NCBI GenBank assembly: GCA_963681965.1
Contig: OY820579.1
Span: 1,376,001 to 1,440,000 of the forward strand
Length of the DNA stretch: 64,000 nucleotides
Direction of reading: 5' to 3'
Source of the DNA: a bacterium
GTDB taxonomy: Bacteria > Electryoneota > JAOADG01
This document shows positions 39,771 through 54,329 of this stretch, one piece after another. The translations under genes and the position numbers were made by a program. The notes under the pieces were generated by a model, which did no database searches, was not told where the DNA came from, and worked only from the letters and a program-made list of their open reading frames with translations. Every line of letters begins with the position of its first letter. Position 1 is the first letter of the stretch.

Positions 39771-39940
39771 CAATCTATTAACGGTTGAGAAATAGTTAAA
39801 GCAAATGTGACGGATTGTTACTCTAACACCTTAACGAAAATGAGACGCTCCTGAGATTTAACCAACGTGAAATCGAATTTCGACCGTTCAGTTTCGTGAT
39901 TGACCCGATTTCACTTATTTTACACCCAATTATTCGGAGT

Positions 39941-40594
39941 ATGAGAGTGGAGTTAATTTCCTTCATTACCGATTGGATCCTGCATCTTGACGTTCACTTA
40001 GCACAGGTGATACAGCAATACGGTAGCTGGACTTACGGAATCTTATTTTGTGTGATCTTCTGCGAAACTGGTTTGGTCGTGATGCCATTTCTACCCGGCG
40101 ATTCGTTGCTTTTCGTCGCTGGTGCCCTAACTGCGAAGAATCCCGATGTATTGAATATCGGTTTTCTGTTTGGGTTACTTTATTTTGCAGCGGTTGCAGG
40201 CGACAACACCAATTACGCCATCGGTCGATTCCTCGGGTTGAAACTGTTTACCAAACCCGATAGCAAATTCTTCCGGAAGGATTATCTTGATCGCACGCAC
40301 TCCTTTTACGAGAAATATGGCAAGAAAACCATCATTCTTGCTCGATTCGTACCGATCGTACGGACCTTTGCGCCCTTCGTCGCCGGTCTTGGGCGAATGA
40401 GCTATCTTACTTTTCTCACGTTCGATTTGCTCGGCGGGGCGCTCTGGATTGGCTCGCTAACTTTTGCGGGTTACTTTTTCGGTAATATCGAATTCATCCA
40501 GAAAAACCTGACCGTCGTTATTTTTTCCATTATCTTTCTTTCGATTCTTCCTGCGATCATTGAAGTTGTTCGCGAAAAATGGAGTAAGAAATGA
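39941..40594 (+). CDS. DedA family membrane protein (start 39941 or GTG 39947)
   Basis: FCETGLVVMPFLPGDSLLF, GDNTNYAIGR, ARFVPIVRTFAPFVAG. Confidence 0.93.
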   Translation: MRVELISFITDWILHLDVHLAQVIQQYGSWTYGILFCVIFCETGLVVMPFLPGDSLLFVAGALTAKNPDVLNIGFLFGLLYFAAVAGDNTNYAIGRFLGLKLFTKPDSKFFRKDYLDRTHSFYEKYGKKTIILARFVPIVRTFAPFVAGLGRMSYLTFLTFDLLGGALWIGSLTFAGYFFGNIEFIQKNLTVVIFSIIFLSILPAIIEVVREKWSKK

Positions 40595-42645
40595 ACCGGA
40601 TATACATCTCACTTCTGTTATTGTTGACATGTAGTTTTCTGGCGATTGCCGCTACGCCGAATCCCCCCGCAGTATCGCATAAGATTGCGTTTACGCTGAA
40701 TCCGACGACTCAAATGCTAACGGGAATCGATACTATTTCCATTCACCACGGCAACCATAAATTCTATCTTGCGAAGAAATGCGATGCCAGCATTGTCGAT
40801 ATCACCGACAAAAAAAACGAGCCGCTGAAACTGGTGACGGCGAATCTGTTGGCGAAAACCGATGCCGAAGAGTGGGAAGCGAATGCGAATGCAATCGAAA
40901 TCAGTGGACCGAAAACAGTAGTTGCGAATTGGAGTGGCGTTTTCAACGATTCTTCCGCCAACGTGCAATTTTCACGCGAACAAGTCGCCGGTGTTCCTGA
41001 AGGGGTTATTGCCAAACAAGGAATTTTTCTATCGACCTCGGCGCTGTTTTATCCGATCGAATTCAATACTGTCCATGAATATACAGTGACGATTTCGACT
41101 CCGAGCGGTTGGACACCCATCACGACCGGGTTACGAACTAAAATCGGTCTTGCTCCGGAAGGTTTTGTCAATTGGTCGTTTGGTGGACCGTGGCAGAACG
41201 AAGGTTTGAGTATTGCTGCCGGTGAGTTTATTGTTCGATCTACCGACACACTCGGCATCTCCATCGAAACCTGTTTCTCGCCTGCACGCGATTCGCTTGC
41301 ACCAACCTACTTAGCTGCGGCGAAAAAGTATATTGCACGTTACTCACGCGAATTTGGAGCTTACCCTTGGCCATCATTTGCCATGGTCGAAGCATTTTTT
41401 CCCGCTGGTTATGGACTTCCGGGATACACTTTCCTCGGATCGGAAGTCATAGCATTGCCGTTTATCGTCACAACTTCGCTCGGTCATGAAGTTTTGCACA
41501 ATTGGTGGGGGAACGGCGTGTTCGTTTCCAGTAGCGGAAATTGGTGTGAGGGTCTGACGACATTTGGCGCCGATTGGGCGTACAAAACCGATCGTGGCGA
41601 GGATGCCGAGTATCGTCGTGGTTTGATCAAAGATTATGCCAGTTATGTCAACAATGGCAACGATTTTCCACTTCGCAAATTTACCTCGCGTTCCAGTGGC
41701 GCTACCCGCGCAGTCGGATACAACAAGTGCGCATTTCTGTTCTATGCATTAAAAAATCGAATCGGTGACGATGCCTTCAATCGCGCGCTACAGCGATTCT
41801 ACGCACAGTACCGGTATCGGTTCGCCGGATGGGACGAATTACGCGAGTGTTTCCAACAGGAAGCGCCGCATGAATCGTTGAAGTATTTCTTCCGTGATTG
41901 GATCGACGAGACTGGTGCGGTTGAGTTGAAGAATTTATCGATGAAGAATGTCGGCAAAACGACCGAGATTTCACTCGCTGTTTCCGGAAAACCATTCCCG
42001 ACATGGATTCCCGCCAAATTAAGCAATGGCGATAGTTCCCGGATCGTCCAGATCGACGGAAGAACCATTCGCAACGGGAAATTGACTTGGAGTAGTGCGA
42101 TCGAATCGACCATTCACAATTGGCAACCGAATGAAGTGACCATCGATCCCTATTATCAAGTCTGGCGTAAACCGGCTCCGGGCGAGATCCCCCCGTCACT
42201 ATCTGATCTGTACGGTGCGAAAAAAGTCGGTTGTTGGATCGAGGGAAATGGCGATTGGCAACTCGATTCTGCGTTGAGAAAATTAGCCGTGTCGCTGTTC
42301 GATACCACCGTCGTCTGGCTGAAAACAACCGAAGAATTTCCCGAGATCCCGATTGTCACACTTCGGAAAGATATATCGAAAACAGCACTCTATCTGCACG
42401 AACCGACACCCGAGCAGAAATTGCTGTTCGGCAAACCGCTCTTTGAAGTGAAAAACGAAGGGAAGCGAATCGTCGGTTTGATCTCTGTTGACAATCTTGC
42501 CGGTGTATCCTACTTGCAGCGCAAGGCACCCCATTACGGGAAATATTCCCGAATCGTCTTTGATGAGACTGGTAAGAACATTATCAAAGATCTGGCTCAA
42601 CCCGGGAAACACGCGCTTCACTACGTATTGCCGCAAGCTAAATAG
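40591..42645 (+). CDS. Secreted M1-family (gluzincin) metallopeptidase
   Basis: Signal peptide; HEVLHNWWGN...WCEGLT (HExxH-x18-E); VGYNK. Confidence 0.85.
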   Translation: MNRIYISLLLLLTCSFLAIAATPNPPAVSHKIAFTLNPTTQMLTGIDTISIHHGNHKFYLAKKCDASIVDITDKKNEPLKLVTANLLAKTDAEEWEANANAIEISGPKTVVANWSGVFNDSSANVQFSREQVAGVPEGVIAKQGIFLSTSALFYPIEFNTVHEYTVTISTPSGWTPITTGLRTKIGLAPEGFVNWSFGGPWQNEGLSIAAGEFIVRSTDTLGISIETCFSPARDSLAPTYLAAAKKYIARYSREFGAYPWPSFAMVEAFFPAGYGLPGYTFLGSEVIALPFIVTTSLGHEVLHNWWGNGVFVSSSGNWCEGLTTFGADWAYKTDRGEDAEYRRGLIKDYASYVNNGNDFPLRKFTSRSSGATRAVGYNKCAFLFYALKNRIGDDAFNRALQRFYAQYRYRFAGWDELRECFQQEAPHESLKYFFRDWIDETGAVELKNLSMKNVGKTTEISLAVSGKPFPTWIPAKLSNGDSSRIVQIDGRTIRNGKLTWSSAIESTIHNWQPNEVTIDPYYQVWRKPAPGEIPPSLSDLYGAKKVGCWIEGNGDWQLDSALRKLAVSLFDTTVVWLKTTEEFPEIPIVTLRKDISKTALYLHEPTPEQKLLFGKPLFEVKNEGKRIVGLISVDNLAGVSYLQRKAPHYGKYSRIVFDETGKNIIKDLAQPGKHALHYVLPQAK

Positions 42646-42670
42646 AGATATGATCGAGTCTTGAGAATTT

Positions 42671-42699
42671 GGGGTGGTCGCAACCACCCCTTTTTTTTT
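42671..42699 (+). terminator. Intrinsic terminator
   Basis: ggggtggt-cgca-accacccc followed by a T9 run. Confidence 0.8.
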
Positions 42700-42838
42700 G
42701 TTTCGAATTGACAATCGTGAAAAATCTTGCAAATTTTCAATTTTCTATTGCACAATCAAAATTAACCCATTATTCTATAGATAGCTTACATGGCACTGCC
42801 GGCATGATTGTTGGTGAAACAAAATCAAATGGGGCAGG

Positions 42839-43084
42839 ATGATGGAAACGCAAATTGAATTTCAGCCGGCACTTCAAGTAGTCGATCTGAATATCTTGAA
42901 AGATGCAGCTCAGCATTTACTGCAACTCGGGTACCCTTCGCAGATTAAACCTTGGGAAGAAGTTACCCCTTCCGAATTGGAAGAATGGATGAATCCTGCG
43001 CAAGGGGGATACCTCCTTTCGCTTCCCGCAGATAATTTTTTCCAAGCGATGAATGAACTGGGTAAAATCTATAAAGCCACCTGA
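42839..43084 (+). CDS. Small hypothetical protein
   Basis: 81-aa ORF with a purine-rich upstream sequence; no recognised motif. Confidence 0.5.
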   Translation: MMETQIEFQPALQVVDLNILKDAAQHLLQLGYPSQIKPWEEVTPSELEEWMNPAQGGYLLSLPADNFFQAMNELGKIYKAT

Positions 43085-43254
43085 TAGAGGAGGATTTTAC
43101 TCTAAGAATTGTAAGTATACCCCGAAATTGTTTTTAATTGATCGGAACCTTTTACTTCGAGGCGGTGTTTATATGTTGAACCCGCTATATCGAGTAAATC
43201 TATATTATTTCATAGAATTATTTAGATCGCTTTCTCATCCTTGGAGTTGCTGCT

Positions 43255-43896
43255 ATGACTGTCGCACCATTGAAGCGATACCGAATTCCCCACTTCCCAA
43301 CCTATGATTTTTTGCTCGAACATCCCATACTACTGGAGAAGCTACCAGACCGCTGGTGCAACAATAAGCTAGTGATGCTCGCGCTCGGAACACTGTCTTT
43401 TATGATGGGAAGCTGCAAGCCGGATGAACCAAAATGGGAAGGTGGAATTGTTGTACCAATTTTGACTGAAAATGAAGCACAACAGATTATCCGGGAAGAA
43501 GCGTCAACTGCTGGGATCACTTTCATCACCGACTCGCTCACAATACCTAATGTGAGAATTCCCATAAGCTTTATCAGATACTCTCATCCATCGGATTCAG
43601 TTCATCTCACTCCCGAAACCAACTTAACGCTCGACGGTCACGACACATTACGTCAGATCAGCTACGAATTCATATCGGAAACAGATTTATCCCAGTGGAG
43701 AATTCAATCGGATACGTTATACGAAATTTATAATATTAACCGCTCGAAAACTGCTAGGGAGCTTCAGACTGAACTCCGGACGCAGCGACCGGATCTGCAT
43801 GTGGGGGTATTTTCTGAGCAAAATGGCAACCCACAAGATCTCCGCCAACAGGTACGGGATTTCATCTCGTGGCTGCATCAACAAGGAGTTTACTAG
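43255..43896 (+). CDS. Radical-SAM-associated putative lipoprotein, paralog 1
   Basis: Leader MTVAPLKRYRIPHFP...LPDRW, lipobox MGSC (C54), WEGG segment, ends LRQQVRDFISWLHQQGVY. Confidence 0.85.
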   Translation: MTVAPLKRYRIPHFPTYDFLLEHPILLEKLPDRWCNNKLVMLALGTLSFMMGSCKPDEPKWEGGIVVPILTENEAQQIIREEASTAGITFITDSLTIPNVRIPISFIRYSHPSDSVHLTPETNLTLDGHDTLRQISYEFISETDLSQWRIQSDTLYEIYNINRSKTARELQTELRTQRPDLHVGVFSEQNGNPQDLRQQVRDFISWLHQQGVY

Positions 43897-43897
43897 C

Positions 43898-44533
43898 ATG
43901 TTGGTTGAACCACTTCGAAGATACGATACTCCGAAGTATCCAAACTTCGAGGGCACCGTGCAGCATCCGGAAATACTGCAAACAATTCCACACCGGTGGC
44001 GTCACAATAGCTGGGTATTTTTTTCTCTGAGCACGGTTGTTTGGTTCTGCACCGGTTGTCCTTGGGGAGGTGGATTTGCTACACACGGCATACCGCCCTC
44101 TGAAGCTGAGATGTTAGCAATTATCAACAGCGAAGCTCGAACAGCCGGAATTGTATTCAAGGGCGATACGCTAACGTTACCGAATGTGTCGTTACCTCTG
44201 CACTTTTCCACTCCTCATCACACCGATACTCTTTGTCCATCGTCGCCTATCGGTTTGAACATGGATGGATTCGATTCCACACATTCAATCGCCTATGAAT
44301 TCGTCGCATGGGAAGATCTCGACGCGTGGAACCGACTCGTATCGATTGAAGCATATCAATCCCTAATGATGAGGCAAACGGCAGAAGCGCTTCAAACGCA
44401 ATTGCGCGCGGATCATCCCGAATTGAAAATCGGTGTATTCCATGAGCCGAATTATCAGGGATCCGATACTCTTAATATCCGACAGCAAGTACAATCATTT
44501 ATCGCTTGGATCCGGTCACAGGGAGTGATGTAA
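43898..44533 (+). CDS. Radical-SAM-associated putative lipoprotein, paralog 2
   Basis: Start reassigned to ATG 43898 by alignment with paralogs; MLVEPLRRYDTPKYP...IPHRW, CTGC (C54), WGGG, IRQQVQSFIAWIRSQGVM. Confidence 0.85.
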   Translation: MLVEPLRRYDTPKYPNFEGTVQHPEILQTIPHRWRHNSWVFFSLSTVVWFCTGCPWGGGFATHGIPPSEAEMLAIINSEARTAGIVFKGDTLTLPNVSLPLHFSTPHHTDTLCPSSPIGLNMDGFDSTHSIAYEFVAWEDLDAWNRLVSIEAYQSLMMRQTAEALQTQLRADHPELKIGVFHEPNYQGSDTLNIRQQVQSFIAWIRSQGVM

Positions 44534-44535
44534 CG

Positions 44536-45174
44536 ATGTTGATCCAACCGGTACGAAACTACCAAATTCCGAAATATCCCGTCTTCGCGGAAGTGCAATA
44601 CTATCCCGATTTAATGGAGACGATGCCCGCTTGCTGGGGGCATAGTAAATTCGCAATGTCTTCTTTCAGTGCCATAGCGATGTTGGTGTTGAGTGGCTGT
44701 CCCATTTTTTCCCGGACTGCCGGACCACCTTCGATACCACCAGTGATGACCGAATCCGAAGCTGCGCAAATTATCCTGCAAGTTGCCGATTCCGCCGGTG
44801 TTCATTTTAACGGCAGTCAGTTGACGTTGAACAATATTAGCATTCCTTTGCATTTCTATAGCGACACGACCACAACCGATACCCTCCATCATACCGCGAT
44901 CACCAATCTGGTGTTTGATGGTAACGATACAACGCATCACGTAGCATACGAATATATTTCATCGGAAGACTTGTCGATCTGGCGCAATCTGGATACTAGC
45001 AGGATATACCGATCAATCGATGGTGTGAAAACTGCCAGAGATCTTCAAAGTGAACTGAGAGTTCTTCGACCGGATTTACACATTGGTGCGTTTTATCCCT
45101 CCAATTACGAAGACGAATTGCGCCAACAAGTACGGGATTTCATCGCATGGTTGCGAACCGAAGGGGTGATTTGA
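44536..45174 (+). CDS. Radical-SAM-associated putative lipoprotein, paralog 3
   Basis: Start ATG 44536; MLIQPVRNYQIPKYP...MPACW, LSGC (C55), LRQQVRDFIAWLRTEGVI. Confidence 0.85.
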   Translation: MLIQPVRNYQIPKYPVFAEVQYYPDLMETMPACWGHSKFAMSSFSAIAMLVLSGCPIFSRTAGPPSIPPVMTESEAAQIILQVADSAGVHFNGSQLTLNNISIPLHFYSDTTTTDTLHHTAITNLVFDGNDTTHHVAYEYISSEDLSIWRNLDTSRIYRSIDGVKTARDLQSELRVLRPDLHIGAFYPSNYEDELRQQVRDFIAWLRTEGVI

Positions 45175-45176
45175 CA

Positions 45177-45938
45177 ATGCTAATCGAACCGATCAAACGC
45201 TATCCCAAACCCAATTACCCCATCTTCCAGTTTGTGCAGGAACACCCCGAATTGCTCGAGAAATTGCCGAAGCAGTGGTTCAACAATCCCGTGCTGCTAA
45301 GTGCTGCATGTGCTGCCGGAATGCTGATCGGTTGCGATCACGGAACCACCAGTCCCTCGACGATGAGATCCAGTAGTGTTGCTCCGGTCTATGCCCATGG
45401 TGAGGGAAGAGCGATTTGGGGCGGAGTCATTTTCGGTGCGGCGTATAGTTTTTTTACCGAAGCCGAAGCGCGGCGATTAATATTGGATGAATTTACGGCT
45501 GCGGGGTATTCGATTACCGATACGACAAAAGCCATCGAAAATGTGAAAATTCCGGCAACGAGCTATTTCGAAACGTTGGATAGCGTCGTTACGTATTTTC
45601 CGACCACAGTATCGCGATTGCAGCTTGATGGTTACGATTCGACTTTGTCGATTGGTTACGAATTTGTTTCCGATGACGATTTCTATAATTGGCGGAGATC
45701 GGATTCGGTGCTCAGCACAGTCTATGTCGAAAATTTGAAAACGACTGCAGAACGTCTGCGACAGGGATTAATGAAGAAACAGACCAATACACATCTTGGT
45801 GTTTTCTACGATCCACTAACATATTACCTGGGGTATGACGCTGCCGATTCGGTAGTAGCAGCGCAAAAGAATAAAACCGAACTGCAACGCCAAGTTCGAG
45901 ATTTCATCGGGTGGCTGCGGTCACAAGGAGCTTTATAA
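45177..45938 (+). CDS. Radical-SAM-associated putative lipoprotein, paralog 4
   Basis: Start ATG 45177; MLIEPIKRYPKPNYP...LPKQW, LIGC (C53), HGEGRAIWGG, LQRQVRDFIGWLRSQGAL. Confidence 0.85.
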   Translation: MLIEPIKRYPKPNYPIFQFVQEHPELLEKLPKQWFNNPVLLSAACAAGMLIGCDHGTTSPSTMRSSSVAPVYAHGEGRAIWGGVIFGAAYSFFTEAEARRLILDEFTAAGYSITDTTKAIENVKIPATSYFETLDSVVTYFPTTVSRLQLDGYDSTLSIGYEFVSDDDFYNWRRSDSVLSTVYVENLKTTAERLRQGLMKKQTNTHLGVFYDPLTYYLGYDAADSVVAAQKNKTELQRQVRDFIGWLRSQGAL

Positions 45939-45940
45939 TC

Positions 45941-46735
45941 ATGCTAATCGAACCGGTTAAACGTTATGAAACTCCGCAATACCCGGCGTTCGAATATGTG
46001 CAAGAACACCCGGAAATCCTAAAGAAATTACCGAAGCGATGGCACGACCACAAACACGCAATCGCTGCAGTATCGATATTTGCATTAATAGTGGGAATCA
46101 GCCAAAGTAAAAATGTATTCAGCCTAAATGATAACATGACAGATAGTTTAAGATCCAGTTATCGAGATGGAAAATTGTCTTGGGGAGGAGAAGGTTCTAT
46201 GCAGCCTCAATCAAAATTTTTTACTGAAGCGGAAGCGAAATGTATTATCGATGACGAAGCAGCAAAATCGGGAATACAATTTAACTTGGGTACACGCGTT
46301 TTATCGAATGTGGAAGTACCAAAAACTTCGACCTATCTAAACTATCCTTCACAACGACAACTGGGAAATAGGATACGAAATCTTGAACTTGATGGCTTCG
46401 ATTCTGTCAAGAAAATAGGATTTGAATTTATTTCGTTAGACGATTTCAATGCATGGAAAGATTCGAGTAATATTAATGGAAGCACTCGCGGCGAAATCAA
46501 TCTGAAACAAACCGCGCAAGAATTACGAAATGGGTTAGAAAAAAAATCGTTACACATGCATATCGGCGTTTTCTACGATCCGATAGGGTCGGAATATTCT
46601 AAGTACACTCATTTCGCCGATCCTTCAATGAATACTGATAAAATGAACCGGAAATTAAGTCAAGAGACGGAACAAGCACTACGAATCCAAGTCCAAGAAT
46701 TTGTTAAGTGGATGAAAGAGCAAGGAGCGCAATAA
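45941..46735 (+). CDS. Radical-SAM-associated exported protein, paralog 5 (no lipobox Cys)
   Basis: Start ATG 45941; MLIEPVKRYETPQYP...LPKRW, hydrophobic stretch, WGGEG, LRIQVQEFVKWMKEQGAQ. Confidence 0.85.
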   Translation: MLIEPVKRYETPQYPAFEYVQEHPEILKKLPKRWHDHKHAIAAVSIFALIVGISQSKNVFSLNDNMTDSLRSSYRDGKLSWGGEGSMQPQSKFFTEAEAKCIIDDEAAKSGIQFNLGTRVLSNVEVPKTSTYLNYPSQRQLGNRIRNLELDGFDSVKKIGFEFISLDDFNAWKDSSNINGSTRGEINLKQTAQELRNGLEKKSLHMHIGVFYDPIGSEYSKYTHFADPSMNTDKMNRKLSQETEQALRIQVQEFVKWMKEQGAQ

Positions 46736-46738
46736 CCG

Positions 46739-47878
46739 ATGCACCTGACGCTCCACCTGACCGGTCAATGCAATTTTCGCTGCAGCTACTGTTATGCCGA
46801 GAAGAATCCAGTCGATATGAGCTTTGAAACGGCGCAGAAAGCCATTCAGATGTCGCTGCGGATGCTCGAAGAAAAGCAGAGTGATAGTAGTCTGGGCATA
46901 GTTTTCTTCGGTGGCGAACCACTTTTGCGCAAACCGTTGATCCGCGAGATCATGACCTATTGCAAGCGCATCGAGACCGAAACGAAACGCCCCTTCCATT
47001 TCAAAATGACCACCAACGGCATGTTGCTCGACGAAGCATTTCTCACCGATCCGCTCACCTCACAAATCATGATTGCATTGAGTCACGACGGTATCCCGGC
47101 AGCACACGATGCTCACCGCCACGATGTCGGTGGACATCCCACTTCGCAAAAATTGGATCCGGTAATCGATCTACTGCTGAAACATCAACCCTATGCGCTG
47201 GTGATGCAAGTGGTTTCACCGGACACCGTGCCGTATTATGCACAATCGGTTCGCTACCACTATGCGTGCGGTTTCCGGTACCTAATCTATACGCTTGATT
47301 TCAAAGCGGATTGGAATGATAAGTCGTTTAAAGACCTTGCAAAGCAGTATAAGGAGTTGGCAGAGTGGTATGAGACCATGACATTGAAGGAAAAGAAATT
47401 TTATTTCAGCCCGTTCGATAAAAAAATCGCCAGCCATATTTTTCCGGAAGAGTGTAACGGCGAACGTTGCGACTTCGGAAAACGACAAGTCTCGGTCGCT
47501 GCAACCGGAAGGATCTTTCCCTGCATTCAATTTGTCGGCGATGGGAGCGACTCGCGGTTCTGTATCGGCGATGTCGAAACCGGTATCGATCAGAAGCGAA
47601 GCGCTAAACTCTACTTCGAGAATTTCGCCGAGAAAGCATCGTGCTTCGATTGCGCCATCAAAGAGCGCTGCAATCAGTACTGCGGCTGTATCAATCTTCA
47701 TACTACCGGCAAGATCAATACCGTCTCACCATACCTTTGCGCACATGAACGAATCGTCCTGCCGATTGCCGATCGGTTAGCGGAGAAGCTCTATAAAAAA
47801 CGGAGTGCGATGTTTATTCAGAAACAGTACAATCATCTTTACCCGCTACTGTCGCTGGTCGAGGATCGGACACGATAG
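46739..47878 (+). CDS. Radical SAM/SPASM domain protein (peptide/protein maturase-like)
   Basis: CNFRCSYC, FFGGEPLL, TTNG, SHDG; SPASM motifs CDFG...GRIFPC and CFDCAIKERCNQYCGC...C. Confidence 0.93.
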   Translation: MHLTLHLTGQCNFRCSYCYAEKNPVDMSFETAQKAIQMSLRMLEEKQSDSSLGIVFFGGEPLLRKPLIREIMTYCKRIETETKRPFHFKMTTNGMLLDEAFLTDPLTSQIMIALSHDGIPAAHDAHRHDVGGHPTSQKLDPVIDLLLKHQPYALVMQVVSPDTVPYYAQSVRYHYACGFRYLIYTLDFKADWNDKSFKDLAKQYKELAEWYETMTLKEKKFYFSPFDKKIASHIFPEECNGERCDFGKRQVSVAATGRIFPCIQFVGDGSDSRFCIGDVETGIDQKRSAKLYFENFAEKASCFDCAIKERCNQYCGCINLHTTGKINTVSPYLCAHERIVLPIADRLAEKLYKKRSAMFIQKQYNHLYPLLSLVEDRTR

Positions 47879-47979
47879 GTGATGGGGGGTAGGGTGTGGG
47901 GATTAGGAAAAGATCGGGTGGACATATTCTTGTTCGCCCATTAGATAAACTGTATCTGAAAACATTTTGTGTCTTGATT

Positions 47980-48046
47980 TGTCGTTGCGAGGACTGCAAC
48001 GAAGGAACGTGCAAAGCACTTCCGAAGCGGAAGGACGAAGCAACCT
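47980..48046 (+). repeat. TGTCGTTGCGA...GCAACCT palindromic repeat copy
   Basis: tgtcgttgcgagg...ggacgaagcaacct, same termini as the array around the GIY-YIG gene. Confidence 0.65.
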
Positions 48047-48156
48047 CCTCCTGTGTCTTGTCAATAAGACGATTGTGAAATGCCCGCAAGTCAGGTGAAG
48101 CCTGACACACCTTTGTGAAGATCTCCTGCCGCAAACGACTGAAATCGAATTAGATA

Positions 48157-48390
48157 CTACTTCAACAACACGATCTTCTGTGTCTTCGCAAAATCTCCAG
48201 CATTCAACCGCACGAAATACGTTCCGGTGGCCAGCGACTTCCCATCGAACTGGAAGGTGTATTCGCCGGGATCCTGATGGAAGTCTACGAGCTTTGCCAC
48301 TTCTCTTCCAGCAATGTCGTACACCCGCAAATCGACTTTCCTTGTCTTCGCAATCGTATATCGAATCTCGGTTGTAGCGTTGAAGGGATT
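48157..48390 (-). pseudogene. Orphan C-terminal sorting-domain fragment with no start codon
   Basis: Manual translation NPFNATTEIRYTIAKTRKVDLRVYDIAGREVAKLVDFHQDPGEYTFQFDGKSLATGTYFVRLNAGDFAKTQKIVLLK*; homologous to the tails ending at 28167 and 58217. Confidence 0.8.
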
Positions 48391-48399
48391 GGAGTGTGA

Positions 48400-51300
48400 T
48401 TATTCAAATTTGCCGTCTTCGGAATTTTCCATATCGTGGACGATTTTCATCGTCTCGACACTGACGGTACAGACACGCTGCAATAGATCGATTACTTTAT
48501 CTTTGTAATCGGCAAAGCGATAGGTATTGAATAACTCTGCTATGGTTGGGTCGGATGGTTTCTTCTCTTTGTATTGATCGAGAATCCATTCGAGCGCACT
48601 GCGATTGCCAAGTTTGTATTCCCACGCCTCGGCCGGGATTCCGGTGAGCGAAGTCATTTCGTCCAATTCGATCGTACCGTGCTCTTTATCGGCCTTGAGT
48701 TTCACTTTGAGTTTGGGGACATAATCCGTCAACGTTCCCGGCTCGGTAACGGCGGGAAAAGATGTGGTCTGCTTGGGTCGCGAGGGTTGCCGGGGAGCTT
48801 CGACGAGTTGCAACCCGAACGGTGCGGCCGCTTCGAAGCCAATGTGCAGTTCCATCAATTGTTTGCCCCACTGCGACCACAACGAAAAGTCTTTGTAGAA
48901 AGGAATCCGGGGAAAGTCGCATTTCAGATTCTGAGCGTACTTTTTACGATACGCCGGGTTGTGCAACACTGCATAACAGTAGTGGAAAATCTGCTCGCGG
49001 CTGATCGTCTTATCTTTGTAATGCTTCTGGAATTCTTTCAAGCCCCAGTCGGTGAGGTTGTCTATAGGGTTTCCCGCTTCGTCAAATCGGAACAATGGAA
49101 TATTCTGACACCCACCTGGAAGACAATTCAAATCGACATAATATTTACTAGATAAACTTAAGAATTGATTTGCATGAGCAGAACCAGAAATACAAATAAT
49201 TTTGTTTTCAGAAGTCGTATGTCTAATTTTTGACCACTTAAACGTTCTTCCTGTTAAGTATTTATCACAATAAAACATTAAATAAGTAAAAGGTCGATAG
49301 ATACAACCACTAACTTGAGAATGGTTAAATGATATATGGAGTCGTTTCTGACGACATTTGTCAAGCTTTACGTTAAATTTAATTTTTGAGTCAGAAATGT
49401 TAGACATGTTCATCGAAATTTCATATTGTTCAATAAAGTATTTTACTTTGTTTTTTAGTAATTCTGAACTATAGTCATACATCCAATGATCACTTTTCGT
49501 CTCAATTCCTAATGAAAAAGTTTTGAACAGTGCGCATTGCCCTTTTTGTGATTTAACTAACTTGTCAATTAATGGTATTAAATGTTCCCAATCATTGTTC
49601 ACAAGATCAATCCAATGATGGTTCTTATCTGGAGTGATCGCTTGAAAATTGATTTGATGCAATGGATTTGATTTTAAAAATTCAAATTTTTCTTTTCTAG
49701 TTGCTCGTATGTTGCAAGGAAGTGCATAAAAGATGTTACATTTGTCATTTACTTTACATTTTTGTTTTATTAAAAATGCAATAGAAATACCGACTGCTGC
49801 TGATACACCAAAAATTGTATGTTTCTCATTCAAGAAGATACCGTCTAAACCAGATAAATCGTGAATGTTCCCACCTAAGTCGATAAAGTAAGCAGAATCA
49901 AATTCTGTTTGGATGCATTTGCGGAAGCCATTAAAGGCACAACCATGCAAAAATTTATTATTTGTTATGAAACAAATTATTCCACCATCATTAATCCTAT
50001 CTGAAGCCCACCGAAAAAATCTTACGTAAGGGTCATATAACATATATTGTGTTTGTGCAGTCCCATTTTTTACGTAAGTATCTTTTATTCGCTTGTCAAT
50101 TTCAAAATATCTTTTGTTGCTATTTTGATAATTATAGTTTGGTTGTTTCGCGTTATACGGTGGATTCCCAATCACGACCGAGATTTTCTTGTTGTTTTGT
50201 TCGCAAATTCGCTTGGCATTCTCGCTGCTGATTCCAAACAACGTACCCTGTTTCCCTTCGTACCCAAGCGCGGCAGTATTGTCCAGCGTATCGACAAAGC
50301 AGAGATTCGGAAACTCTTCGAAGGCACCCATTTTCTGCTTGTAAGAGTATTCGATATTCAAATTGGCGATGTAATACGGGAGGATGGCAACCTCGTTCGC
50401 CAGCAATTCGTTCTTGTATTTATCGAGCAGATACTGCTTGGGAATGTGCTCGATAATCTCGCAAATGAATGTCCCGGTTCCAGTAGCAGGATCGAGAATT
50501 TCGACATTCTTCGAGGCGAGTGTTTTCCCGAAATGCTTGTGCAGCAGATAATCGGTACTCTCGACCATGAACTTTACAATTTCATTGGGTGTATAGACCA
50601 CGCCCAAGCGGTCGGCCGCTTTCGGGTTGTACACTTTATAGAAATTCTCGTAGAGAACTTTGAGAAATTTCTGTTTTTCGTGGTGGTCGGGAATACCGGA
50701 GGCCGCTTCGTGAATGGTGCCGTAAAAATGCTCGATATTGCCCAGCAGTGTTTTCCGTTCCGGGTAAGTAAACAACTTTTCGATCAGCTCTTCCAACTTG
50801 CGCGCGATATTGTTGTGACGGTGGAAGTCCGGTTCGTCAAAGACTCTATTGAATATATCGGCAGTTAGGATATGCTGAATCATCATCTCGCGGATATCGT
50901 CGGCAGTAATGGCGGGATTGATTTCGGTCTTGCATAAATCGTGGAATTCTTCGAATGCGTCCAAATACGGCTGATTATTTTTGCTCTTGATGTCGATTTG
51001 CACGCGGATGGCCACCAGAATCTTGGGAATATCGGTTTTGAAGATCTCCAGTGCCGCTTCGAATTTTCGTATGATTTCGCGTTTGAATTCGATAAAGGAG
51101 ACAATCAAGCGGTCGAGTTGTGCCGGTTCATGAACATTCGCCCGCCCGACCAATTGACCGTTCTGAAACAGTACGGCACTTTGGCTGTCTTCGAATAAAA
51201 TGTTGGTGAGTGGGTATCCCTTTTTTATTTTTATATCGATCTCTTCGTCTAAACTGTCTTTTTCGTCTTTACTTTCCCAATACCCGATATCCAAACCCCA

Positions 51301-51510
51301 GCTATTTCGCAAAATGCCGTCGGGTTTGACGTTTTTTCCGGTCGTTCCAAGTACAAATACTTCCCGCACTACTCGTAAATTGCGGTCGTCGGCGTAACGA
51401 TTCAATAAATTACAAAAACATCCTTTGATAGTATCTTCATTGGCTGTTTTCGCAAACTTAACAGTTTGATCGTATTCGTTGTAGTATTCTTGGATATAAA
51501 GCTGCGACAT
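48400..51510 (-). CDS. Restriction-modification protein: N-terminal PD-(D/E)xK-like nuclease + N6-adenine MTase + Type ISP-like C-terminal specificity domain (no helicase)
   Basis: KPDG...YWESKD; GVVYTPNEIV; motif I LDPATGTGTF; motif IV IGNPPY; C-terminal YAVLHNPAYR...FPRIP...WEYKLGNRSALEWILDQY. Confidence 0.85.
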   Translation of the reverse strand: MSQLYIQEYYNEYDQTVKFAKTANEDTIKGCFCNLLNRYADDRNLRVVREVFVLGTTGKNVKPDGILRNSWGLDIGYWESKDEKDSLDEEIDIKIKKGYPLTNILFEDSQSAVLFQNGQLVGRANVHEPAQLDRLIVSFIEFKREIIRKFEAALEIFKTDIPKILVAIRVQIDIKSKNNQPYLDAFEEFHDLCKTEINPAITADDIREMMIQHILTADIFNRVFDEPDFHRHNNIARKLEELIEKLFTYPERKTLLGNIEHFYGTIHEAASGIPDHHEKQKFLKVLYENFYKVYNPKAADRLGVVYTPNEIVKFMVESTDYLLHKHFGKTLASKNVEILDPATGTGTFICEIIEHIPKQYLLDKYKNELLANEVAILPYYIANLNIEYSYKQKMGAFEEFPNLCFVDTLDNTAALGYEGKQGTLFGISSENAKRICEQNNKKISVVIGNPPYNAKQPNYNYQNSNKRYFEIDKRIKDTYVKNGTAQTQYMLYDPYVRFFRWASDRINDGGIICFITNNKFLHGCAFNGFRKCIQTEFDSAYFIDLGGNIHDLSGLDGIFLNEKHTIFGVSAAVGISIAFLIKQKCKVNDKCNIFYALPCNIRATRKEKFEFLKSNPLHQINFQAITPDKNHHWIDLVNNDWEHLIPLIDKLVKSQKGQCALFKTFSLGIETKSDHWMYDYSSELLKNKVKYFIEQYEISMNMSNISDSKIKFNVKLDKCRQKRLHISFNHSQVSGCIYRPFTYLMFYCDKYLTGRTFKWSKIRHTTSENKIICISGSAHANQFLSLSSKYYVDLNCLPGGCQNIPLFRFDEAGNPIDNLTDWGLKEFQKHYKDKTISREQIFHYCYAVLHNPAYRKKYAQNLKCDFPRIPFYKDFSLWSQWGKQLMELHIGFEAAAPFGLQLVEAPRQPSRPKQTTSFPAVTEPGTLTDYVPKLKVKLKADKEHGTIELDEMTSLTGIPAEAWEYKLGNRSALEWILDQYKEKKPSDPTIAELFNTYRFADYKDKVIDLLQRVCTVSVETMKIVHDMENSEDGKFE

Positions 51511-51673: not shown

Positions 51674-51942
51674 CAATAAATTGCCACATTGTGCGTGCAA
51701 AAAAATGCATACGAACGACCGAACAGGATAAAAAACAATTGATGGTCGCGGAGCGATGCGCGATTGCCCTGAACGAAGCACCAAGCACCATGCACCACCC
51801 CCATTTTCCCCACCGCAAAAATCTCGCTATCTTAAGGCTTGGCTGAGGGCAACGTCTTGAATGTATTACGTCCCCCATTTCGCCTCACCTTTTCTTGGAA
51901 CAAGTTACGCTCCCAACCCGCTTATGGAAGCAGGAGAACCGA

Positions 51943-53742
51943 ATGAACGAACCGAACGAAAACCGGGTATTGCTGTTCGGCAATGAAGCGATTGCTCAAG
52001 GCGCCCGCGAAGCCGGCGTCTATTTTGCTTCCGCTTACCCCGGAACCCCGTCGACCGAAATTCTCGAAGTATTCGCGACCTATCCCGGCGTCTTCGCCAA
52101 ATGGTCACCCAACGAAAAAGTCGCCCTCGAAGTCGGAATTGGCGCATCGATCAGCGGCACCCGCACCCTCGTCTGCATGAAGCATGTCGGTGTCAACGTC
52201 GCCATGGATCCCCTGATGACCTTCACCTACACCGGCGTTCGCGGCGGTTTCGTGTTGGTCAGTGCCGACGATCCCGAGATGCATTCCAGCCAGAACGAGC
52301 AGGATAACCGCATCATCGGAAAATTCGCCAAGATCCCCGTATTCGACCCATCCGACAGTCAGGATGCCCACGATTTCACGATGCTCGGCTATGAAATTTC
52401 CGAACGCTTCAACACCCCTGTGATGTTGCGCGAAACTACCCGCATCGCCCACGCTAAAGGTCTCGTAAAATTAGGACAGTGGCGCGACCCGGTACGTGGC
52501 GAAAAATTCGTACCCGAAATCAGCCGGTTCGTCATGATGCCGAACTTCGCCAAGCCGCGCCACACCTTTGTCGAAGCGCGTACTCTTGAATTGGCGAAAT
52601 TCTCCGACGAATGGGAAGGGAACAAACTCGAACTGAAGAGCAAGGAAATCGGTATTATCACCGGTGGTGTCGCAGTTCAGTACATTCGCGAATTGCTGCC
52701 CGATGCCAGCTTCCTGCAAGTCGGCATGGTATGGCCGTTCCCTGCCGAAAAAGCGAAGAAACTTGCCGCACATTGCAAGCGCATTATCGTCGTCGAAGAA
52801 CTCGAACCGTTCCTCGAAAATGAAGCGAAGATTCTCGGAATCGAATGCGAAGGCAAAAAATATTTCCCAATCGAAGGGGAATTGAATCTTGATAAGGTCG
52901 CGAAAGGCTTATTTGAAGCCGGTCTGCGCGACAGCCAGCCAGTTTATCCCAAACAAGCCGAAGTGATGGTTCGTCCTCCGGTGCTCTGCCCCGGTTGCCC
53001 GCATCGCGGTATTTTCATGGCATTGAAAGAGGTCAAAGCGCACGTCTTCGGCGATATCGGCTGCTATACGCTCGCCGCGCTGAAGCCGCTCGAAACGCTG
53101 CATTGCTGCTATTGCATGGGCGCCTCGATCGGGAATGCGATCGGCGTAGCACTGTCGACCACCGGTCAGAAAAACGCGGTGACGGCAGTACTCGGCGACT
53201 CGACGTTCCTGCATAGCGGTGTCACCGGTTTGATGGACATGGTCTACAGCAGTGCCAACATGACGCTCGTGATTGTCGACAACGACATTACCGCCATGAC
53301 CGGCGGTCAGGAAAATCCCGGTTCCGGGATGGACTTGATGGGTAAACCGGCACCGAAGATTTTGATCGAGGATATCGTCAAGGCATGCGGGATCAAGAAA
53401 CTCTTAATCTGCGATACCTATGACTATGATAAAACACTCGCCGATTTGAAAGACGCGATTGCATTCGAAGGTCCGTCGGTAGTGATCGCTCGGCGTCCCT
53501 GCGCGCTGTTCCCGCGGAAAGTCAAGATCGATCCCTACATCGTGAAAGACGATCCCTGCACCGGTTGTGGCTTGTGCCTCAAGATCGGTTGTCCGGCGCT
53601 GTCGATCACCGGTCGCAAGACGGCGAAGGGGCTTGACATTCCGATGATCGATCCGACGATTTGCACGGGTTGCACATTGTGCGTTCAGGTCTGCAAATTC
53701 GATGCGATTTTCCAGAAAAGTGCGGAAGGGGTCACAGCATGA
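51943..53742 (+). CDS. iorA: Indolepyruvate:ferredoxin oxidoreductase alpha subunit
   Basis: GNEAIAQG, YPGTPSTE, MKHVG.NVA.D, RPPVLCPGCPH, GDIGCY, GDSTFLHSG, C-terminal 2x[4Fe-4S]; RBS aggag before ATG 51943. Confidence 0.93.
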   Translation: MNEPNENRVLLFGNEAIAQGAREAGVYFASAYPGTPSTEILEVFATYPGVFAKWSPNEKVALEVGIGASISGTRTLVCMKHVGVNVAMDPLMTFTYTGVRGGFVLVSADDPEMHSSQNEQDNRIIGKFAKIPVFDPSDSQDAHDFTMLGYEISERFNTPVMLRETTRIAHAKGLVKLGQWRDPVRGEKFVPEISRFVMMPNFAKPRHTFVEARTLELAKFSDEWEGNKLELKSKEIGIITGGVAVQYIRELLPDASFLQVGMVWPFPAEKAKKLAAHCKRIIVVEELEPFLENEAKILGIECEGKKYFPIEGELNLDKVAKGLFEAGLRDSQPVYPKQAEVMVRPPVLCPGCPHRGIFMALKEVKAHVFGDIGCYTLAALKPLETLHCCYCMGASIGNAIGVALSTTGQKNAVTAVLGDSTFLHSGVTGLMDMVYSSANMTLVIVDNDITAMTGGQENPGSGMDLMGKPAPKILIEDIVKACGIKKLLICDTYDYDKTLADLKDAIAFEGPSVVIARRPCALFPRKVKIDPYIVKDDPCTGCGLCLKIGCPALSITGRKTAKGLDIPMIDPTICTGCTLCVQVCKFDAIFQKSAEGVTA

Positions 53743-54329
53743 GCGACAATATGACCAATGTACTGCTCGTCGGAGTCGGCGGACAGGGTGTGGTTCTGGC
53801 ATCCAATATTATCTGTGAAGTAGCGCTCCGTGCCGGTTTCGATGTAAAGAAGTCGGAAGTACACGGCATGAGTCAACGTGGTGGCGTCGTATCGAGTCAT
53901 GTCCGGTTCGGTCCGAAAGTTTATTCCCCGTTGATTGCCGCCGGTGCGAGCGATGTGGTGCTCGGACTCGAAGCGGCGGAAGCGTTGCGCTTTGCCCATG
54001 AAGTCCGCAAGGGAGGTACGCTGATCGTTTCGACTCAGACGATCAAACCGCCATCCGCATCCGAACGCAAAGGACCGCGCTATCCCGACGATCCGATTGC
54101 GAGTGCGAAAGAAATCTGTGCCGGTAACGTGGTCTCGATCGCTGCCGAGGACATTGCGCTGAAGCTTGGCAATCCGCGTCTCTCCAGCACGATTCTGCTG
54201 GGTGCGCTGTCGACCAATCTTTCGATCGACGAAAAAACGTGGAAGGATACGATTGCGGCGATGGTTCCGAAAAAGACCATCGACCTCAATCTCGCTGCTT
54301 TCGATGCGGGTCGGAATGCGGTGAAGTAA
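53739..54329 (+). CDS. iorB: Indolepyruvate:ferredoxin oxidoreductase beta subunit
   Basis: GVGGQGVVLAS, SEVHGMSQRGG.V.SHVR, NLAAFDAG; ATGA overlap with iorA. Confidence 0.92.
   Translation: MSDNMTNVLLVGVGGQGVVLASNIICEVALRAGFDVKKSEVHGMSQRGGVVSSHVRFGPKVYSPLIAAGASDVVLGLEAAEALRFAHEVRKGGTLIVSTQTIKPPSASERKGPRYPDDPIASAKEICAGNVVSIAAEDIALKLGNPRLSSTILLGALSTNLSIDEKTWKDTIAAMVPKKTIDLNLAAFDAGRNAVK

Follow-up and report, generated by a model that had tools for sequence, protein, structure and literature searches.

What does a single radical S-adenosylmethionine (SAM) enzyme do directly behind five tandem copies of a gene for an exported protein? This question is raised by positions 43255-47878 of a 64,000-nucleotide stretch (hereafter the window) from a bacterium of the Electryoneota (assembly GCA_963681965.1, contig OY820579.1, positions 1,376,001 to 1,440,000 of the forward strand), where six genes lie on the same strand. 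A sequence-only reading of the window had proposed that a conserved leader on five lipoprotein paralogs recruits the enzyme in the cytoplasm, and that a variable segment is modified before export. Here, gene linkage was followed across genomes and metagenomes, and a paralog and its leader were modelled. We conclude that the locus probably represents a widespread two-gene module, as yet without a name and here enlarged to five substrates, in which a radical SAM enzyme acts, in a leader-dependent manner, on full-size exported proteins. If true, this would be a new post-translational modification of cell-surface proteins, with a new kind of leader-recognition domain and with an export signal that itself removes the leader.

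Gene order and linkage of the pair

Open reading frames (ORFs) and the protein alignment agreed with the gene order first read from the sequence, in which five paralogs of 211-264 aa, 1-3 nt apart, are followed directly by the enzyme. All lie on the plus strand: P1 (43255-43896, 213 aa), P2 (43898-44533, 211 aa), P3 (44536-45174, 212 aa), P4 (45177-45938, 253 aa), P5 (45941-46735, 264 aa) and the radical SAM enzyme (46739-47878, 379 aa), with gaps of 1, 2, 2, 2 and 3 nt. The other paralogs are 33-40% identical to P1 and share its layout, i.e. a leader (residues 1-34), a hydrophobic helix, an alpha/beta body and a conserved C-terminal helix; the common C-terminal motif described earlier was present in the alignment of all five. 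The starts of P2-P5 ('ML[IV]xP') were picked from this alignment, and the ORF listing begins these four genes at earlier in-frame codons. A GGAG-like element lies 9-12 nt 5′ of each aligned start. For P2-P5 and the enzyme, this element sits inside the codons for the conserved C-terminal (Q/E)G(V/A) of the preceding gene (43870-43897, 44510-44535, 45150-45176, 45915-45940 and 46710-46738), so that protein conservation and translational coupling use the same bases. The upstream limit of the unit is a terminator-like hairpin and T-run on the plus strand, after an M1-peptidase-like gene (42671-42700; 8-bp stem with 6 GC pairs, T9; a consensus match only). Promoter and terminator scans found sites in the region to be no more numerous than in shuffled sequences, and Rfam gave no RNA family in window positions 42000-49000.

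The pairing of partner and enzyme was checked from both sides. In the phylum of the window, the family was found in 4 of the 61 genomes searched (the window's own included), and the enzyme gene adjoins it in the other three, in either gene order. A sister species (G001) has a single copy directly upstream of an enzyme 62% identical to that of the window, in a different neighbourhood with Mla genes upstream. In G036 and G005, a shorter partner (178-186 aa) lies directly downstream of an enzyme with 37-38% identity. Genome contigs were then scanned with the enzyme alignment and 80 loci were kept. A family member adjoins the enzyme in 22 of the 26 closest loci (E<=5e-74, 36-61% identity), as found by profile search of six-frame ORFs. 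In the other four (L026, L031, L033 and L037) the adjoining ORF opens with the same N-terminal motif by eye; an 18-column leader profile scored L031, L033 and L037 at E-values of 0.011, 0.0059 and 2.4e-5 and missed L026, and the L031 ORF is cut by the contig end. The 54 more distant enzyme loci gave no family match and no leader-profile match at E<1. Inspection by eye of 10 loci (L035, L036, L037 and L038 in part only) showed weaker leader look-alikes in L038 and L044. A Fibrobacter metagenome-assembled genome (MAG) has two tandem distant paralogs of the enzyme (L045:3254-6657; ∼30% identity with the window enzyme), and a gene for a small basic protein comes after each; this looks like a different, possibly analogous system.

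From the partner side, a metagenome scan with the C-terminal motif (80 loci kept) placed the enzyme next to the partner in 68 loci. Among the 12 loci with no enzyme, the contig stops 0-144 nt past the last family ORF in 10, and L171 has just 112 nt upstream. Homologues without an adjacent enzyme gene are therefore not common from either side. When all other ORFs of these loci were clustered, no further gene proved to be conserved. The two clusters that come next in size (83 and 49 loci) consist, as judged from one example ORF each, of opposite-strand ORFs overlapping the enzyme or partner genes, and the remaining clusters occur in at most 12 loci. Taken with this result, the adjacency bears out the proposal that the paralogs and the enzyme form a functional unit. 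At least two family ORFs were present in 22 of the 80 metagenome loci, in arrays of 2 to 6 per single enzyme. A Planctomycetota genome carries five tandem copies with one enzyme (L021:1506-4939), and a metagenome contig has six family ORF matches ahead of one enzyme (L123:2622-6255). At L146:3189-5582 the enzyme frame is open for 798 aa, ∼2-fold the usual length, perhaps through gene fusion or loss of a stop codon.

An exhaustive profile search of 1.84 billion cluster representatives returned 1982 partner matches at E<=1e-3, 1410 at E<=1e-10 and 472 at E<=1e-30. The 3 foreign proteins returned by a word-filtered search with the five-paralog profile reflect the limit of that filter and not true rarity. 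The five paralogs had no match at E<=0.1 in Pfam or NCBIfam, nor did typical and short-form members, and PADLOC gave no match for the partner proteins. The source names of members looked up (8 clusters, 2 of them named) were 'hypothetical protein' or none. The ESM Atlas gave unnamed clusters and one automatic 'Metalloprotease' without a Pfam family, to which we gave no weight. A family of at least 1410 clusters (E<=1e-10) without a Pfam or NCBIfam model is thus tied gene-for-gene to one radical SAM clade. The module was present in Planctomycetota, Acidobacteriota, Armatimonadota, Bacillota, Verrucomicrobiota, Bacteroidota, Ignavibacteriota, Fibrobacterota, Spirochaetota, Myxococcota, Lentisphaerota and Krumholzibacteriota. 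Among the carriers is a cultured organism, Haloferula rosea (L029).

In a quick tree of 27 enzyme orthologues, three clades each corresponded to one partner architecture: long-form (14 rows, SH-aLRT 99), short-form (8 rows, 99) and a variant (4 rows, 100) in which the motif of the partners is followed by 'SYLDPDP...PYPF'. The enzymes of the window and G001 grouped with those of Armatimonadota, Planctomycetota and Acidobacteriota (6 rows, 98) and stood apart from the G005 and G036 enzymes of their own phylum, which points to movement of the enzyme-partner cassette by horizontal transfer. A quick tree of 51 partners (every third representative plus the window set) joined the five paralogs and the G001 copy in one group (96), indicating that the array is a lineage-specific expansion; end branches are long, at 0.9-1.9 changes per site.

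The enzyme, the leader and their predicted docking

The enzyme carries its radical SAM cluster motif, CNFRCSYC, at residues 11-18 (46769-46792, plus strand) and a SPASM region at residues 244-334 (47468-47740, plus strand). C11, C15 and C18 were invariant in 27 of 27 orthologues, as were the seven canonical SPASM cysteines and an eighth, C317 (C244, C262, C302, C305, C311, C315, C317 and C334), consistent with the motif and full SPASM domain reported from the sequence. Pfam assigned only Radical_SAM (46.8 bits against a cut-off of 29.5) and Fer4_12 and gives no SPASM domain; the SPASM call was made because of the cysteine pattern together with NCBIfam matches to SPASM maturases. The best NCBIfam matches were all to peptide or protein maturases and all far below cut-off (PapB 209 bits, nif11 129, QhpD 125, CXXX-repeat 124, SCIFF 122 and anSME 75), and orthologues gave a similar picture. 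Clustering with non-peptide enzymes had been named beforehand as a point to check, and the nearest named relatives proved to be peptide maturases and not small-molecule enzymes. In the window's genome the enzyme has no close paralog (554 bits to itself, next 92.5). The PADLOC matches of the enzyme were to viperin models and confined to the N-terminal radical SAM core, so a defence role was rejected.

The closest solved structure by sequence is CteB (5wgg, 92.8 bits), which aligns from its residue 99 to enzyme residues 3-338. Since CteB aligned only from residue 99 and the cluster motif of the window enzyme lies at residue 11, the enzyme has no N-terminal recognition element (RRE) of the kind found in maturases of peptides made on the ribosome and modified after translation (RiPPs). 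At the other end, 41 residues continue past both the CteB and the PapB alignments. This clade-specific C-terminal extension (residues 339-379; 47753-47875, plus strand) is of interest for how the partners might be recognised.

The leaders of P1, P2, P3 and P5 (34 codons on the plus strand from 43255, 43898, 44536 and 45941) align without gaps with that of P4, and M1, P5, Y9, P12, P15, P24, P31 and W34 are invariant in all five; the positions from P5 onwards are those picked out in the sequence-only reading. Mean pairwise identity among the paralogs was 48% over residues 1-34, 21% over residues 35-71 and 37% in the body, so the leader is the best kept part. In a 137-sequence family alignment, P31 and W34 were each present in 137/137, P15 in 135/137 and P12 in 129/137, and the aromatic positions were retained in 119/137 (Y9) and 103/137 (Y14, with a further 22 Phe). 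The family consensus from this alignment is M-K-[VI]-x-P-V-[KR]-x-Y-x-x-P-x-Y-P-T-R-x-[IV]-L-[DE]-E-H-P-E-L-L-R-L-V-P-K-R-W-x-x-N. Searched against the window's genome, a 40-column leader profile matched the five paralogs only (E 4.9e-16 to 2e-11; next 0.097). The N-terminal motif (PVKxYxxPxYP) also heads unrelated protein bodies in L033 and L037. In L033:6136-6801 (Myxococcota MAG) the motif and a hydrophobic helix stand on a Cys-rich body with CxxxD pairs, and in L037:4313-4981 (Armatimonadota MAG) they stand on yet another body.

We predicted the complex of the enzyme (27-row alignment) with residues 1-40 of P4 (45177-45296, plus strand; 137-row alignment). Three runs gave ipSAE values of 0.79, 0.83 and 0.85, compared with 0.00 for the best of three controls. 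The runs shared at least 95% of contacts, and the partner had a predicted local distance difference test (pLDDT) score of at least 81. Of the pairs used for calibration, 58 of 80 solved complexes attained the mark, as did 2 of 110 mismatched ones; this is only a rough guide here, as our own alignments were used. The modelling of leader and enzyme that had been suggested earlier thus predicts that the P4 leader docks, and the complex prediction supports leader binding by the enzyme. Together with its conservation and its presence on unrelated bodies, this is in agreement with the N-terminal extension being a leader.

In the model, the enzyme interface comprises residues 192-194, 218, 233-236 and 301-307 and many of residues 329-379, and the leader contributes residues 1-9, 12-17, 20, 26-27, 29-34, 37 and 39-40. 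The C-terminal extension forms most of the predicted docking surface (D345, A348, L351, Y352 and Y364). Leader Y14 has the lowest expected error, and the least-error pairs set it against D345, A348, E349, L351, Y352, H233 and I234. Leader I6 and Y9 are placed against C305, A306 and I307, with Y9 beside C302 and C305. Interface residues W192, D345, L351 and Y364 are invariant in 27/27 orthologues, and position 352 is aromatic in 26/27. The radical SAM core (residues 1-191) has no residue in the predicted interface; therefore, the leader is modelled as a handle and not as the residue under attack. We know of no solved complex of a leader on such a C-terminal extension, and it seems unlikely that the docking score comes from the predictor's memory of a solved complex.

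The features of a RiPP precursor are thus found in part. There is a conserved leader, with recognition by the maturase predicted by the complex model. A short precursor with a free core and a protease or exporter in the cluster was not found: the partners measure 211-264 aa and include a folded domain, and no third gene is conserved.

Site of modification and competing explanations

If the leader is a handle, what is modified, and where? The hydrophobic stretch that follows had been described as ending in a lipobox Cys (C53-C55) in four of the five paralogs. The Cys positions stood, at residues 54, 54, 55 and 53 in P1, P2, P3 and P4, and P5 has no Cys before the body. A PROSITE-like lipobox pattern matched at this Cys in P1 (MGSC) and P3 (LSGC); for P4 the script returned just an earlier Cys, C45, and LIGC at C53 fits by eye. 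P2, with Cys51 and Cys54 (FCTGC), failed the strict pattern. Typical lipoprotein precursors have a short basic n-region and a Cys within about the first 35-40 residues, a rule not followed by these paralogs, whose conserved n-region is about 37 residues long and whose Cys comes only at 53-55. Across the family, Cys occupies the lipobox column in 77/136 members (about 4 in 10 lack it), and a lipobox-like pattern was matched by 93/151 representatives, with a median Cys position of 54. Neither P5 nor the G001 copy has this Cys, and the description of the products as lipoproteins is not supported as a general rule. Members without a lipobox Cys, P5 included, would keep the hydrophobic helix as an uncleaved anchor. 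That both cleaved and anchored outcomes are tolerated fits a leader whose work is finished before or at export.

The Gly/Pro-rich segment after the helix had been read as hypervariable and proposed as the modified site. Instead, it is a decayed counterpart of an HGxGRGxFGC motif conserved in the wider family, where a linker is followed by [VI]-A-P-[IV]-F-x-H-G-x-G-R-G-x-F-G-C-x-x-V-x-P-P-V-F-L-S-E-x-E-A (137 sequences). P4 retains the motif as APVYAHGEGRAIWGG (APVYAHGEGR), with GG where most members have GC, and P1-P3 have fragments only. Being a decayed conserved motif that is missing in short-form partners and has no shared Cys, this segment is a poor candidate for the site.

Beyond this motif, the family has an alpha/beta body ending L-R-x-Q-V-R-D-F-I-x-W-L-K-A-Q-G-V-I, in which the C-terminal helix is strongly conserved (Q239 137/137, F243 137/137, W246 135/136). 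An AlphaFold2 model of P4 (137-row alignment; mean pLDDT 87.4, predicted template modelling score 0.75) has short leader helices and a further helix spanning 38-53. After a linker of poor definition, a three-layer alpha/beta domain begins at residue 78 and ends in a long C-terminal helix at 222-249; strand 78-82, part of the HGxGRGxFGC motif, belongs to the fold. Foldseek against the PDB found no match to this model at E<=0.001. The best VIA-align rows were Bax1 (Z 5.8, root-mean-square deviation (rmsd) 3.3, 99 aligned), I-Bth0305I (Z 5.4) and VRR_NUC (Z 4.9). Rows of the PD-(D/E)xK type (Z 4.9-5.8, rmsd 3.3-3.7, 88-101 aligned) were mixed with flavodoxin-like folds and are inside the noise range of the tool. 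The body has conserved acidic residues (E95, E105, D151, E162 and D168), and Val stands at the PD-(D/E)xK Lys position. The acidic residues would suit a metal site, and we take a PD-(D/E)xK nuclease-like theme as a lead only. Three members of 390-410 aa (P0018, P0049 and P0148) carry an inserted domain resembling the copper amine oxidase N-terminal domain (PF07833, 45-50 bits).

From the computed gene linkage, leader portability and docking, we infer a modification, its place and the fate of the leader as follows. Partners would be made with a cytoplasmic N-terminal extension of ∼37 residues ahead of a signal anchor or lipoprotein signal peptide. The extension (M-K-[VI]-x-P-V-[KR]-x-Y-x-x-P-x-Y-P ... 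P-x-R-W) would be bound by the C-terminal helical extension of the enzyme and the adjoining SPASM surface, with the Tyr of PxYP seated in a pocket of invariant D345, L351 and Y364. The leader would thereby keep the pre-protein on the enzyme in the cytoplasm while a radical modification is placed downstream, in the hydrophobic or juxtamembrane stretch. Export would follow; with a lipobox the leader would depart with the signal peptide, and without one, as in P5, it would remain as a cytoplasmic tail. The leader and the hydrophobic helix are the only parts common to all partner types, and the target would therefore be the leader itself, the following helix or juxtamembrane stretch, or residues specific to each sub-clade. 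A site just downstream of the leader is favoured on indirect evidence, because the model shows a handle and leader-dependent maturases work that way. The module is small and has two components, and the model offers point-mutant predictions at Y14, D345, L351 and Y364.

Two types of chemistry can be addressed for the five window copies. A thioether link is unlikely, because these copies share no Cys and 8/137 family members have no Cys between W34 and E95. Formylglycine formation of the sulfatase type was set aside for want of a [CS]x[PA]xR motif. Our more specific proposal is tentative and, on balance, we would not yet call it probable: a maturation route in more than 10 phyla, in which a RiPP-style leader placed before a Sec or lipoprotein signal is read by a C-terminal extension of a SPASM enzyme, a radical, non-thioether modification is made before export, and signal-peptide processing doubles as leader removal.

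Several observations weigh against maturation of the partners by the enzyme. The one clear exception to the linkage is metagenome locus L138, where a family member is flanked by 3.9 kb and 2.6 kb of sequence in which no enzyme gene lies. No Cys position is common to P1-P5; even the Cys of 'FGC' is kept in only 107/133 sequences, with Gly in 19, and the Cys-free members noted above point the same way. More generally, no residue past the leader is universal across long, short and other-body partners. The predicted interface, which lies wholly outside the radical SAM core, is silent on which residue reaches the active site. Finally, hydrophobic signal anchors are normally targeted co-translationally, and a cytoplasmic enzyme would then have little time to act beyond the anchor.

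Alternatively, the N-terminal extension itself could be the substrate, with a residue of PxYP or KxY modified (e.g. by a Tyr cross-link or epimerisation) and the extension acting as a cytoplasmic tail or released peptide. No element except the motif recurs in every partner type, other-body partners among them, and nothing else in the partners is certain to stay in the cytoplasm with the enzyme; its Y9 and Y14 are the best-kept aromatics (119 and 103, plus 22 Phe, of 137). However, in the model Y14 is buried on the C-terminal extension and Y9 lies beside SPASM residues C302 and C305, and the leader contacts nothing in residues 1-191, where the SAM cluster is held, a geometry that is typical of a docking site. 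Moreover, such a tail would be thrown away wherever a lipobox is present. We therefore consider modification of the extension unlikely, although it is the alternative that survives best.

Since 2 to 6 partners accompany a single enzyme, as would suit maturase precursors, it is improbable that the anchored proteins are not substrates at all and serve as membrane receptors or tethers whose tail recruits or regulates an enzyme acting on another molecule. A well-folded alpha/beta body with conserved E95, D151, E162 and D168 could indeed bind a ligand outside the cell, the predicted docking is away from the active site, and a search for a conserved target residue found none. Against this, cleavage at the lipobox (Cys in 77/136 members, pattern in 93/151) would sever tail from body, so that no signal could pass. 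Moreover, every one of the closest named enzymes is a maturase of peptides or proteins, and the surroundings offer no other conserved gene that could encode a substrate.

The product could also be the released signal peptide, i.e. a leader and hydrophobic peptide made bioactive by modification and signal peptidase II cleavage; enterococcal pheromones arise in a similar way from the signal peptides of lipoproteins. This would account for a leader more conserved than the body and portable between bodies, and for the lipobox-like cleavage site in many members, and it needs no dedicated protease or exporter in the cluster. The strong conservation of the body and of its C-terminal helix would be odd for a mere carrier, and about 4 in 10 members lack the Cys, so we hold this to be quite improbable, and more so than a receptor role. 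Last, it is very unlikely indeed that the genes are neighbours by local accident, or as a remnant in decay, without current function in this genome, as the partial or complete loss of HGxGRGxFGC in the five copies and their long branches (0.9-1.9 changes per site) might suggest, since all six reading frames are open, the enzyme retains every residue invariant across the 27 orthologues, the leaders retain their invariant positions, a GGAG-like element precedes every start, and the pair is kept in the sister species in another genomic neighbourhood.

Relation to known maturases and neighbouring genes

How does the proposed module of leader-guided maturation before export compare with known systems? 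The best-scoring named family for the enzyme is that of the PapB/freyrasin ranthipeptide system (NF047865; residues 3-328), which likewise consists of a radical SAM/SPASM enzyme beside substrate genes. The window enzyme, at 209 bits, is below the family cut-off of 340, as are its orthologues L012, L015 and L025 (218, 222 and 245). PapB has an N-terminal RRE, placed at residues 1-86 in PMC12715619, whereas the cluster motif of the window enzyme begins at residue 11. According to PMC9413430, PapB acts on a short peptide and connects the Cys of its CxxxD repeats with Asp or Glu. The PapB substrate is thus a short peptide with Cys-Asp/Glu pairs, in contrast to the 211-264-aa anchored partners without a shared Cys; Cx3[DE] occurs once each in P1 and P5 and in no other window paralog.

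The SPASM Cys pattern of CteB, the SCIFF thioether maturase (5wgg), aligns with that of the window enzyme, but the CteB N-terminal domain has no counterpart, and the window enzyme has the 41 additional C-terminal residues and the extra invariant C317, which aligns with Ala in CteB. CteB leaves one auxiliary-cluster site free for a substrate Cys. If C317 filled that site in the window enzyme, it would hint weakly against Cys-coordinating thioether chemistry.

Lasso-peptide leaders carry a YxxP motif that is bound by an RRE. The window leader likewise offers a Tyr/Pro handle (Y14 of PxYP, in the model), but its predicted receptor is a C-terminal SPASM extension and not an RRE winged helix, and there is no lasso machinery at the locus. 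The YSIRK and KxYKxGKxW motifs are conserved sequences ahead of the signal-peptide hydrophobic core that route proteins to secretion sites or accessory Sec systems. As in the window leader, a conserved sequence before the hydrophobic core marks the protein for a dedicated pathway; to our knowledge, neither motif has been linked to a radical SAM enzyme.

Closer in substrate size is anSME, a SPASM enzyme without an RRE that acts on full-size sulfatases before export. The window enzyme matches it distantly (4k37, 47.7 bits; TIGR03942, 75 bits against a cut-off of 349), and, unlike anSME substrates, none of six partners (the five paralogs and the G001 copy) has a [CS]x[PA]xR motif. We know of no conserved extension ahead of the signal peptide in sulfatases. 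QhpD, which gives the window enzyme 125 bits (TIGR03906), is a SPASM enzyme that modifies a protein, QhpC, guided by N-terminal parts of the substrate. Similarly, CrpC is a SPASM enzyme that cross-links the protein CrpA, with N-terminal substrate parts as a guide, and has a predicted RRE, as given in PMC13692751. QhpC and CrpA are Cys-rich and acquire thioether links, whereas the window system has no conserved Cys and no RRE, and its leader is fused to a membrane-targeting signal. The original idea of radical SAM chemistry on full-size exported proteins was thus supported in part, for the unit and its leader, but such chemistry is not wholly new, with anSME and QhpD/QhpC as precedents and, in PMC13692751, CrpC/CrpA.

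Judged by sequence, the window enzyme is not a member of the PapB, SCIFF, QhpD or anSME families, given scores below cut-offs, no RRE and no target motif. In its workings the system resembles a leader-dependent radical SAM maturase with several precursors. What would set it apart is that the leader precedes a lipoprotein signal or signal anchor, that the substrates are folded and of full size, that docking of the leader is predicted to use a C-terminal extension, and that no accessory protease or exporter is present. A literature search of main texts in one library of papers found no description of this partner-enzyme pair. Known radical SAM/SPASM maturases mostly act on short peptides, with the leader mostly read by an RRE. 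Validated protein-size substrates of radical SAM maturases are few, according to PMC13692751.

The genes around the unit are varied. Upstream on the plus strand are a DedA/VTT-domain membrane protein (39896-40594), which overlaps the next start by 4 nt, and a 684-aa M1-peptidase-like protein (40591-42645; 24.5 bits, where the Pfam cut-off is 27.7). An 81-aa acidic ORF (42839-43084, plus strand) lies between P1 and the terminator-like site, with no family match and no counterpart upstream of the G001 copy. Just downstream and convergent with the operon is a 1036-aa Type ISP/IIG restriction-modification enzyme (48400-51510, minus strand), identified by PADLOC (REase_MTase_IIG, 813 bits) and Pfam (Type_ISP_C, ISP_coupler, Eco57I and N6_Mtase). 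A drop in GC content to 0.32 across 49000-49999 is suggestive of foreign DNA. Further downstream, an indolepyruvate/2-oxoacid:ferredoxin oxidoreductase-like gene pair (51895-54329, plus strand), the first with TPP_enzyme_C, POR_N and 4Fe-4S dicluster domains, seems to belong to common anaerobic metabolism.

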